Virus record (IMG/VR): IMGVR_UViG_3300004481_002026
Span: 2,870-66,869 of that record
Strand: one strand, 5' to 3'
Origin: a virus
Taxonomy: Duplodnaviria; Caudoviricetes
DNA length: 64,000 nucleotides
Part shown: piece after piece, positions 2,696 through 5,564 of the stretch
How the letters are laid out: every line of letters begins with the position of its first letter
How positions within the stretch are numbered: position 1 is the stretch's first letter
The notes under the pieces: model-generated
Database searches by the model: none
Seen by the model: the letters and a program-made list of their open reading frames with translations, nothing else
What the model was told of the DNA's origin: nothing
Translations under genes and position numbers: made by a program

Positions 2696-3136
2696 CTAAT
2701 GGGATTCGGGATGCTCAAGAATCTCTTCGCTTATCTGAAGAGCCAATTCTTGTTGGATGCGCGGCTGCATCGCCAGCATCGCAATCATCTGCTCTGTCGT
2801 TAGTGGGACTTGCGCCTGCAGCCTGGCGTGAACAGCCTGTGGAGCAACCTGTTGGCGTTTAGCCTTCGCTGCTGCTTCGGCAAGAAGCGATTCCCACGGG
2901 CGGTCTTGCCCTTTGTCCGCCCCGAATCCTCGAAATGTCGCCAGTTCCTCATCCGTAAAGAGAAGGCGAGCCGGATGCGTCCCCAACACAAGCGCGAGTC
3001 GCACCGCCCATTCCTTCGTCATCTTGCGTGACCCATTTTCCAGCTTAACGATTTGCGGCTGCGAAGTCTCAGCGAGTTCGGCCAGTTCGACCTGGCTCAT
3101 CCCCATATTTTCCCTGATTTCTTTCAGTTTGTTCAT
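2696..3136 (-). CDS. XRE-family HTH repressor (repressor 1)
   Basis: MNKLKEIRENMGMSQVELAELAETSQPQIVKLENG is a classic XRE HTH; divergent promoter region upstream. Confidence 0.9.
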   Translation of the reverse strand: MNKLKEIRENMGMSQVELAELAETSQPQIVKLENGSRKMTKEWAVRLALVLGTHPARLLFTDEELATFRGFGADKGQDRPWESLLAEAAAKAKRQQVAPQAVHARLQAQVPLTTEQMIAMLAMQPRIQQELALQISEEILEHPESH

Positions 3137-3152
3137 GGGTGGATTCAATATG

Positions 3153-3226
3153 CCAAAATGAACCATATTACAAAATCCATTTTGGAATATTTTTTGTTTG
3201 ACATACCGAGTCCGATTTGGCATAAC
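3153..3226 (+). promoter_or_regulatory. Rightward promoter TTGACA-N17-CATAAC (3198-3226) with CC-N5-G(G/A) operator-like sites
   Basis: CCAAAATGA 3153, CCATTTTGG 3177, CCGATTTGG 3212; lies upstream of the Cas7-like operon. Confidence 0.7.
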
Positions 3227-3612
3227 TGAGTCACAAGAGCAAAAAGACGAACGAACAGCCAAAACGGCCACCTACCTCCCAAGCGTACCGAGTAAACCAA
3301 GCGTACCAGTAAAAACAAAATGAACGCCCCGAAATGCGGGCCAACTACAGGAGACGACGACATGCAGGAAGAACAAGCAGCGTCCAGAAGAGCGGACTTT
3401 CCTTTGGGAATGCCACCGTGACGATCAACAAGGACGCTGCCCGCTGAAATGCGGGCGGCGGGTTCCTCCAGCCAGTCCGCTCGATTGCGAGCCGATCGGG
3501 GTGGAGACACCAAGCGCCATGACGCTTTTTTTCGCGGCGCGGCGTGACGCGACACATCGTAACGTCAAGCTATTCAACGACCTTTCACCACAACCACATC
3601 GAGGAGACTAAA

Positions 3613-4209
3613 ATGGATTTTTCCGTAGCCACCGTAACACTCAGAAGCTTTTCCCCTTACAGCCAGAGCAAGCAGCATGACGAACCGTCGCTGAAGGGCG
3701 AGGGCAAAGGAGACTACGACAAGCGCACCTGGAAGGCCAAGGCGCATTTCACCAAGGAAGGCACGCTTGGCATTCCGGCGGCATCCATGACGCAGGCCAT
3801 TGCCGAAGCCGCCAAATACTCCAAGAAACAAATCCCCGGCCAGGGCAAGGCCACATGGACCGCCAAATTCAAGAGCGGTATCATGCTCGTCGATAGCTAC
3901 ATTGACACCGGCATAACACTCAAGGACAGCGACTTCGTCGACATCATGTGCGACGCTCAGGGTAAGACCGGATCAGCCGTCAGCAGCCGCGTACCGCGCC
4001 GCTTTCCGCAGGTTCCCGAATGGTCGGCCACATTCCAAGTATGGATACTCGACCCCATTATCACCGAAGAAATCTTCCGCGAGATGGTCGAGCTTGCCGG
4101 TATGTTCATCGGTATCGGCCGCTGGCGGCCCGTCATGAACGGCGGAATGAACGGTCGCTTCATCATCGACAAGCTTCAATGGGAAGATAACCGCAAGTTT
4201 GCGGCGTAA
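3613..4209 (+). CDS. Stand-alone Cas7/RAMP-like RNA-binding protein (198 aa)
   Basis: RAMP-like motifs GIPAASMTQAI, RVPRRFP..PEWSATF and a C-terminal Gly-rich loop AGMFIGIGRWRP..GG.NGRF; GAGGAG SD; no other cas genes nearby. Called by motif recognition, not by search. Confidence 0.75.
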   Translation: MDFSVATVTLRSFSPYSQSKQHDEPSLKGEGKGDYDKRTWKAKAHFTKEGTLGIPAASMTQAIAEAAKYSKKQIPGQGKATWTAKFKSGIMLVDSYIDTGITLKDSDFVDIMCDAQGKTGSAVSSRVPRRFPQVPEWSATFQVWILDPIITEEIFREMVELAGMFIGIGRWRPVMNGGMNGRFIIDKLQWEDNRKFAA

Positions 4210-4213
4210 TCAA

Positions 4214-5009
4214 CGCAGCGCCGCGTTTAGCTCGGCACGTTTACGCCGCTTTGCGCAACGCCTTGCTAGGCAGGCTCTTTCGGGAGCCTGCTCAGGGAAG
4301 GCATTGTCTTCCACTTCGCATCTACACGCCACGCTTTGCGCAGTTACGCAACGTTGCGCCGCTCATCTCAACGCAAGGAACTATCATGACTACCGTTGCC
4401 CAACTTAATCAGCCTAGAAGACCGATTGCGGTGGGCAACCGCCGCCTTCTTTCCGCTTCTCGCCATTGTGCTCCATTACGCACCGTGCCGCAGCTTAGTG
4501 AATCGCAAGTCAACTCAACGTTTCCTAGCTTGGTCGGCTCTTCATTGAGCCGCCTTGTGGTGGGAAACCGCCACTGCGCCCCGCGCCTCTACACAACATG
4601 TCGCTCCACGGCTCGTCCTGTCGTATCGCACCTCATCTCAACGAACACCAAACTCAGCAGCGACCGCATTCGTGCGGTCATTGGTGGGCTTGTCCTGCTA
4701 CTCCGATTCGCTACTTGGCGCACCACCGCTCTCTTCGTCGTTCCGCCTTGCACGTCATCTCAACGAATACCCTGCCAAGCGGAGGTTGCCTTCGGGCACC
4801 TTTCGGTTCGCAGGAACCACCCGGCTCCATATCGCGACATGGCGCGCCGCTGCACATTATTGCGCATCTCACCTCACCTCAACGGCCGCCCTTCGGGGCG
4901 GCATCCCCAAGCATTCCTGCTGGAGTGTTTCGGGATGCCGTCACTGGTATCAACCCACGCCACTCTCTGCTTCGCTCCAAAACTTTGCGCAACGTCACTC
5001 ATCTCAACG
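4214..5009 (+). ncRNA. Array of seven pentamer-periodic (CNY-NN)n tracts separated by hairpins; putative guide-RNA array
   Basis: Tracts at 4214-4268, 4312-4371, 4449-4518, 4572-4641, 4694-4763, 4818-4882, 4958-5007. Of 88 pentamers, 72 start with C and 84 have a pyrimidine at position 3. Six tracts end in CTCAACG. Confidence 0.8.
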
Positions 5010-5036
5010 CGCCTAACCACCACATGAGGAGACCCC

Positions 5037-5564
5037 ATGGCCTTTGAATCCACTCCCGCCAGATTGGCGATCAGAGACAAGCTCGTCGACGCATTCGTGC
5101 ATGTCTCAGTGCAGGGGTTAATCACCCACCAGGAAATTGCAGCCATCATTGGCAAGAAAGTAACGTCACCTGACGCGTTGAAAAATTCCGCATTCAAGGT
5201 TGCGACGGAAGAACACGGCATCGTGTTTGAGAACATCCGAGGTGCTGGCTACCGGCGTATCGCGGCCGGAGAAGTGCATCGCGTCGGCACGCAAGCCCGC
5301 CACCGCATACGCGGCACGGCAAAGCGCGGAACGAAGAAGATACTGGCCGTTCTGTCCGGAAACTCCAACAGCATGACAAATGGTGAAAAGATCAGGGCCC
5401 ACGCCGAGATTGGCACGCTTGGTATGATCCGCATGGCGGCCGGTCGTGGTGCGGCGGGGAGGGCGTACCGTGAGGCCGAACGTGCTCATGATAAAAGCCA
5501 GAAGCCGCCAGCGCAGGAAGACATCGCACGCGCCGTTATGGGCGCTCTGGTGCGGTCAGCATGA
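5037..5564 (+). CDS. Accessory protein of the Cas7-like locus, possibly winged-helix DNA-binding (175 aa)
   Basis: Follows the array; GAGGAGAC SD; ITHQEIAAIIG helix plus VFENIRGAGYRR wing-like motif; basic. Confidence 0.7.
   Translation: MAFESTPARLAIRDKLVDAFVHVSVQGLITHQEIAAIIGKKVTSPDALKNSAFKVATEEHGIVFENIRGAGYRRIAAGEVHRVGTQARHRIRGTAKRGTKKILAVLSGNSNSMTNGEKIRAHAEIGTLGMIRMAAGRGAAGRAYREAERAHDKSQKPPAQEDIARAVMGALVRSA

Follow-up and report, generated by a model that had tools for sequence, protein, structure and literature searches.

A temperate-phage array of C-N-Y/NN pentamer tracts, very probably the guide array of a VIPR system

Genes and features of the locus

The stretch of DNA analysed here, referred to as the window, is 64,000 nucleotides long and covers almost all of a 66.9-kb virus record (IMGVR_UViG_3300004481_002026). 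The gene order at the locus is a cI-like repressor, a 198-aa gene, an array of short periodic tracts, a 175-aa gene and then the recombination genes, including a Sak4-like one. The array lies in the early operon, and the phage is a temperate one. The features are given below by window position; the names vipr, vap and vrRNA are those of the published VIPR systems, which are introduced further on.

2696-3271, minus strand: gene for a cI-like HTH repressor
3533-3579, plus strand: putative upstream vrRNA tract of 9 pentamers (C at position 1 in 7/9, pyrimidine at position 3 in 9/9) with a TTCAACG end; hairpins at 3440-3530 come before it
3613-4209, plus strand: predicted vipr gene (P0002), 198 aa, minimal RAMP with the G-loop GIGRWRP; R170 at the position of D177 in SUSP1
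4219-4260, plus strand: tract v0, short and degenerate, 8 pentamers, CGCAACG end
4261-4301, plus strand: inter-tract hairpin, stem 4270-4292, UUCG-type loop
4302-4373, plus strand: tract v1, 14 pentamers, ending CTCAT CTCAA CG
4374-4438, plus strand: extended inter-tract hairpin that includes GCGGT-gggca-ACCGC; compensatory GTGGT/ACCAC in the related locus L009
4439-4520, plus strand: tract v2, 16 pentamers, the final three degenerate, CTCAACG end
4521-4571, plus strand: inter-tract hairpins GGCTC..GAGCC and GTGGT-gggaa-ACCGC
4572-4643, plus strand: tract v3, 14 perfect C-N-Y-NN pentamers, CTCAACG end
4644-4678, plus strand: inter-tract hairpin GACCGCA-ttcg-TGCGGTC
4679-4765, plus strand: tract v4, 17 in-phase pentamers, those at the 5' side degenerate, CTCAACG end
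4766-4822, plus strand: extended inter-tract hairpin, CCTGC..GCAGG around a UUCG-capped stem
4823-4884, plus strand: tract v5, 12 pentamers, ending CTCAC CTCAC CTCAA CG
4885-4947, plus strand: long inter-tract hairpin, -39 kcal/mol, kept in L009 with paired changes
4948-5009, plus strand: tract v6, 12 pentamers, ending CTCAT CTCAA CG, with the ribosome-binding site of the next gene directly after it
5037-5564, plus strand: accessory gene resembling vap (P0001), 175 aa; the modelled product shows a winged-helix topology at its N-terminus, plus four long helices
9217-10032: Sak4-like gene, among the recombination genes

Two further repeats lie outside the array proper. Nearly the same 20-nt block (ACCAC..CACAT.GAGGAGAC) is present before the start codons of both vipr and vap (3583-3612 and 5012-5036), and both of its copies sit directly after a tract with a TCAACG end. 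The intergenic region between the repressor and vipr carries an 18-nt direct repeat in two copies (CCAAGCGTACCGAGTAAA, 3279-3313), which may be an operator or another regulatory repeat.

The product of the 175-aa gene has no Pfam or PHROG family. Its structural model (pLDDT 91) has a winged-helix topology, and the structural matches to wHTH regulators are weak (E > 0.03). A homologue is found downstream of vipr, after the array, in 45 of 73 related loci. No CRISPR-type direct repeats of 24-48 nt were found at the array, whose neighbours are the repressor, vap and the recombination genes. A BLAST search of the locus against phage records gave no match. Similarly, Tandem Repeats Finder did not detect the array, and an Rfam search of the window array and ten related loci returned no ribozyme or known family between the tracts.

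Pentamer grammar and its turnover among relatives

Between 4210 and 5009, seven tracts of period-5 C-N-Y-N-N sequence are separated by stable hairpins, and six of them end in CTCAACG. These six ends had been placed by the first-pass annotation at 4373, 4520, 4643, 4765, 4884 and 5009, and all of them were reproduced exactly. The motif is concentrated here, as its six copies lie within the 800 nt of the array while the plus strand of the other 63 kb holds seven. An eighth tract, that at 3533-3579, lies upstream of the 198-aa gene, and thus the plus strand carries one tract upstream and seven downstream.

The same annotation had described a mostly constant first base, a pyrimidine at the third position and variable fourth and fifth bases, and had suggested autocorrelation and position-specific entropy at period 5 as checks. 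Both measures bear out the description. Within the array, the autocorrelation of C has its maxima at lags 5, 10, 15 and 20 (0.19, 0.23, 0.12 and 0.11), with negative values at the neighbouring lags. When the phase of the pentamers is set backwards from each CTCAA, the seven downstream tracts yield 93 pentamers. Position 1 is C in 78% of these and a pyrimidine in 89%; position 3 is a pyrimidine in 94% (87/93); position 2 is a mixture (G 45, T 30, A 18 and C 6%). The entropies of positions 1 to 5 in the window tracts are 1.06, 1.74, 1.23, 1.89 and 1.99 bits, so that positions 4 and 5 are near-uniform. The tracts range from 8 to 17 pentamers, and that at 4572-4641, earlier called perfect, does follow the pattern in 14 of 14. 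The tract detector finds 6 tracts in the real array, against 0.3 per 800 nt (at most 2 in 200 runs) in simulated sequences with the dinucleotide content of the array itself.

The tracts are composed of 36-44% C and 10-21% G and are largely unstructured, while the whole inter-tract elements fold at -17 to -39 kcal/mol. The hairpins that had been pointed out at 4270-4292, 4428-4442, 4662-4679 and 4885-4902 are all present as stable folds. In every array the hairpin elements number one less than the tracts; they may be 3' tails, 5' handles, processing spacers, filament caps or loading signals. At their 3' side the tracts are conserved as C(T/G)CAACG, extended hairpins lie between them, and a pseudoknot is not demonstrable in the tracts. 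The 4210-5009 region is taken as non-coding because its dominant signal has a period of 5, which is incompatible with coding, and the coding reading was therefore dropped.

Loci encoding homologues of P0002 were collected for comparison, 8 of them genomic and 65 viral (IMG/VR contigs), making 73 in total. Across the family, the pentamer is C (.97), then G (.69; A.14, T.15), then C (.89) or T (.09), followed by two free bases; the detector fixed positions 1 and 3 in this logo and left position 2 free. Tracts usually close with the pentamer CGCAA and then CG or GG, in agreement with the CTCAACG of the window.

Two relatives are close enough for a comparison of the array unit by unit. The Vipr proteins of L009 and L001 are 97% and 84% identical to that of the window, respectively, and orthologous units are present in both. 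Among the orthologous units of the window, L009 and L001, identity is 74% in the inter-tract elements and 70, 53, 57, 36 and 31% at tract positions 1 to 5. The values of 36 and 31% at positions 4 and 5, set against 74% between the tracts, indicate that the NN slots have been randomised while the scaffold was kept. Such turnover of NN against a fixed scaffold was one of the checks that the first-pass annotation had proposed, by comparison with related prophages. The stems also carry compensatory changes among relatives, such as GCGGT/ACCGC to GTGGT/ACCAC.

Several observations on individual relatives may be added. The fifth tract of L001 (5172-5229) shares much of its NN string with v3 of the window (4572-4641), with a flanking hairpin that comes from another slot; guides thus appear to move between the slots of an array. 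L034 (2040-4560) has about 18 very regular CGC/NN tracts, each with CGCAA repeats at its end, and the spacers between them are a conserved double-hairpin element of ~75 nt without an Rfam match. In L067, a GTG/NN tract (2749-2793) lies upstream of vipr on the vipr strand and is the reverse complement of the downstream CAC/NN tracts; it may be an oppositely oriented vrRNA. In L071, sRNA-Xcc1 (RF02221, 55 bits, above the gathering score) is found at 888-975, some hundreds of bases ahead of a vipr gene of the GGY type.

The Vipr-like protein and the guide-array reading

P0002 belongs to PHROG 4652 and is without a Pfam family. Around 700 homologues are present in public data; most are metagenomic, and Rhizobium leucaenae and Ancylobacter are among the sources. 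A profile built from 37 homologues matches one solved structure, PDB 36pp (36pp_D, 'SUSP1 Vipr protein'), with an E value of 5.9e-4 over residues 114-183, which is the segment from the thumb to the G-loop. With the AlphaFold (AF2) model of P0002 (pLDDT 86.6), Foldseek retrieves the RAMP proteins Cas7 (type VII), Csm3 and Cmr4 at E values of 1e-7 to 1e-5, the best being 1.5e-7. The profile match to SUSP1 Vipr, along with the Foldseek matches to RAMPs, indicates that P0002 is a minimal RAMP and a predicted homologue of Vipr.

VIPR (Viral Interference Programmable Repeat), first described in 2026, is a CRISPR-like, RNA-guided DNA silencer of phages that consists of Vipr, the vrRNAs and an accessory vap gene (10.64898/2026.04.26.720920,.720927). 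A vrRNA is ~100 nt long; behind its 9-16 GGY/NN pentamers comes a structured tail that does not vary. Vipr forms a filament on it, one protomer to each pentamer, and sequesters the GGY. Pairing with DNA is left to the NN bases and passes over each third base of the target, and the complex acts to silence rival phages, satellites or prophages (10.64898/2026.04.26.720920,.720927). Other repeats, namely NNNGG, YNNNG and NNNNG, have been published (10.64898/2026.04.26.720920), as have the other triplets GAC/NN, CAC/NN, WGT/NN and TGH/NN (10.64898/2026.10.21.760802).

The locus shares a good deal with the type II exemplars of VIPR, which are Escherichia phage SUSP1 and a Pseudomonas fulva prophage (10.64898/2026.04.26.720920,.720927, 10.64898/2026.10.15.759431; PDB 36pp). 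Common to both are a stand-alone minimal RAMP gene, a small accessory gene that is possibly of DNA-binding type, tracts of ~9-16 pentamers in which three letters are constrained and two hypervariable, a single vrRNA before the gene and the array behind it, a location in a phage or prophage, and the lack of self-targets. However, the triplet of the window is C-N-Y (C-G-Y in the wider clade) and not G-G-Y; in comparison with SUSP1 Vipr, the G-loop Asp177 is replaced by Arg and the thumb Arg138 by Phe, and the similarity between the two sequences is detectable by profile only. The array lies between vipr and vap, whereas in the published systems both genes precede the array. Its units terminate in C(T/G)CAACG, and extended hairpins stand between the tracts in place of a demonstrated 3' pseudoknot tail like that of the SUSP1 clade. 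The non-canonical VIPR arrays likewise have a period of 5, another fixed triplet and an adjacent Vipr-like fold (10.64898/2026.04.26.720920, 10.64898/2026.10.21.760802). The published CAC/NN form is present in sister loci of the window protein family, and the published 'YNNNG' description is fitted by Y-NN-C-G. In the available text of the VIPR preprints, neither CGY/NN nor C-N-Y/NN is named.

Similarly, the backbone of class 1 CRISPR-Cas (Cas7, Csm3, Cmr4) has the RAMP fold, G-loop and thumb in common with the window protein, and there too one protomer covers a short RNA segment with periodically flipped bases. The period in class 1 systems is 6 nt with one sequestered base, against 5 nt with three in the window. 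The window lacks CRISPR repeats and spacers, other cas genes and an adaptation module, and its guide information is interleaved, whereas that of class 1 CRISPR-Cas is contiguous. Another point of comparison is TRAP, the trp RNA-binding attenuation protein, which binds 11 (G/U)AG triplets with spacers of 2-3 nt in unstructured RNA. Its sites resemble the window tracts in having a triplet, a two-base spacer and about 11 repeats. The protein fold is, however, unrelated; the TRAP spacers carry no information, and arrays of units and a phage context are missing.

The array is, very probably, the vrRNA guide array of a phage-encoded VIPR system. The locus is an ordinary member of the class except for its constant triplet, C-N-Y (C-G-Y family-wide) against the published G-G-Y; its membership stands despite this, because the VIPR preprints allow 'a related consensus' as well as non-canonical triplets. 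The first-pass annotation had proposed a constant scaffold with variable slots, each unit of ~120 nt being a guide. This proposal gains support from the Vipr homology, the locus layout, the strand bias, the NN turnover and the published homologous systems, and by that analogy the units would act as guides. Some features count against the assignment, namely the triplet that is not GGY, the loose position 2, the lack of a demonstrable 3' pseudoknot and the hairpins that number one fewer than the tracts in each array. Off-pattern pentamers in v0, the 5' part of v4 and v6, which are possibly decayed, count against it as well.

The last point leads to a variant in which the VIPR array is partly decayed, with v1, v2, v3 and v5 as working guides and v0, v6 and the 5' part of v4 as relics. 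The counts of C at position 1 (5/8 in v0, 12/17 in v4, 9/12 in v6) favour it, and internal degeneracy of vrRNAs has been published as frequent (10.64898/2026.04.26.720920). The published systems tolerate such degeneracy, however, and 87 of the 93 pentamers retain their position-3 pyrimidine. Partial decay is possible and somewhat unlikely.

The sense of the RNA was also considered. A transcript from the opposite strand would carry the repeat NN/R-N-G and a 5' handle CGTTGAG, and NNNNG-type repeats are indeed published (10.64898/2026.04.26.720920). Against this, the flanking genes and the operon are all on the plus strand. Further, C-N-Y/NN tracts in 74 loci, both upstream and downstream, number 305 on the vipr strand and 9 on the other, so that 305 of 314 are co-oriented with the gene. 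Canonical GGY/NN is found in the distant relatives L071-L073, members of this protein family, where it lies on the strand of vipr, and the position-3 pyrimidine of the canonical GGY is kept in the sense reading only. Because of these last two points, the RNA is most likely made from the plus strand, as judged from sequence, and an antisense origin is very improbable.

The tracts could instead be protein-binding scaffolds without a guide function, such as autoregulatory or packaging sites of the RAMP, rut-like decoys for Rho loading, or TRAP-like ring sites at 5 nt per subunit. Their C-rich, G-poor (C 36-44%, G 10-21%) and largely unstructured composition is like that of rut sites, and triplets at period 5 recall the sites of TRAP. 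A scaffold would nevertheless not need positions 4 and 5 to be randomised between close relatives with positions 1-3 kept, and the associated protein is homologous to one that was shown to guide by exactly such a grammar; a scaffold role is accordingly given very little credence. A function at the level of DNA, as iterons, an origin or a centromere-like protein array with half-turn spacing, would suit the position in the early/replication region upstream of the Sak4-like gene, but it is barely credible in view of the strict strand asymmetry across 74 loci, the compensatory changes in the inter-tract stems, the lack of inverted or double-strand symmetric sites and an RNA-binding RAMP as the protein partner. 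The Rho/rut, TRAP-like, iteron and coding readings had all been considered at the outset and were dropped.

As a vrRNA array of a VIPR system, the locus may be pictured to work as follows. The plus-strand transcript of the early operon would be cut into units, each with one tract of ~9-16 pentamers, the conserved 3' end C(T/G)CAACG and a flanking hairpin. Vipr (3613-4209) would polymerise on the tract with one protomer per pentamer, burying C-N-Y and presenting positions 4 and 5. The NN dinucleotides would then pair with double-stranded DNA read as NNxNNx..., with one base skipped per pentamer, and a rival phage, satellite or prophage would thereby have its transcription repressed. The accessory protein of predicted winged-helix topology (5037-5564) would assist. 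In this picture, the processing of the RNA, the formation of a filament, the one-base skip and the silencing itself are all carried over from the published systems.

The natural targets of the guides were searched for widely. In the phage's own genome, guides at skips of 0-3 matched no better than shuffled guides and gave no self-target; an absence of self-targets is reported for VIPR too (10.64898/2026.04.26.720920,.720927). The 206 guides of all loci showed no enrichment against all loci at any skip length, and a search under the skip rule in the sister phages G174 and G175 found nothing. For v3, 173 Rhizobium genomes gave 0 hits with <=3 mismatches under the skip rule; for v1, five related records also gave 0. 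Exact seeds of v1-v6 in IMG/VR had 0-4 hits each, with no extension past the seed, and two metagenome seed scans gave 0 and 6 hits, the six being in unrelated genes. The best match pairs v2 at 21/24 with a PTH2-like gene that lies in a foreign provirus, and the skipped bases there fall on wobble positions; it was rejected because its homologues score lower and the number of seed hits equals chance. When the guides were read as codons, no motif was found in the proteomes of the phage or its sisters.

The fixed triplet and the G-loop residue

In SUSP1, D177 recognises G1 of the triplet, R138 together with W178 recognises G2, and a pocket with R179 holds Y3 (10.64898/2026.04.26.720920,.720927). 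An HMM alignment places R170, W171 and R172 of P0002 at D177, W178 and R179, respectively, and F131 at R138. Sorted by the residue that occupies the D177 position, the 73 loci include 60 that combine R and CGY/CTY, 8 that combine Q and CAC (L036, L052, L054, L060-L062, L067 and L068) and 3 in which D, together with a thumb R, goes with GGY.

Two loci depart from this pattern. In L066 (3708-3750) the pentamers read GGC/N[G or C] and look like the canonical GGY, though R instead of D stands in its G-loop; this locus is the only clear exception. L013 (2857-2980 and 3638-3690) also has R in the G-loop and carries CGA/NN pentamers; the purine at position 3 breaks the pyrimidine rule that holds in all published motifs.

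When the G-loop columns are left out of the tree, the loci with Q and CAC are scattered over it, which would mean up to six switches, of which the well-supported branches force only one. The switches between R and Q and between CGY and CAC are concordant in 8 of 8 cases. The triplet appears to track a single G-loop residue; this is a matter of correlation and structural reasoning from alignments and models, and not of proof. Nor does the available text of the VIPR preprints connect the triplet with the G-loop residue.

It is tentatively proposed that the triplet is a programmable 'dialect' set by one or two residues of the G-loop and thumb, with D177/R138 for GGY, R/F for CGY and Q/F for CAC. 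Dialects may switch repeatedly because a switch would insulate the Vipr of a phage from rival 'solo' vrRNAs that would otherwise hijack it. This idea is possible, and at present rather doubtful. If it holds, the R-W-R variant of the window phage, with its free position 2, would be a relaxed reader.

The locus is not the discovery of a new kind of system, as the class was published in 2026. It does confirm that VIPR extends to temperate phages in Rhizobium and further Alphaproteobacteria, the homologues in public data numbering ~700, and it makes available a series, found in nature, of Vipr proteins reading different fixed triplets. If the Arg/Gln/Asp position does set the triplet, it would give orthogonal pairs of Vipr and vrRNA for multiplexed DNA silencing, and would also open a way to study how the guides of one phage are avoided by its rivals.
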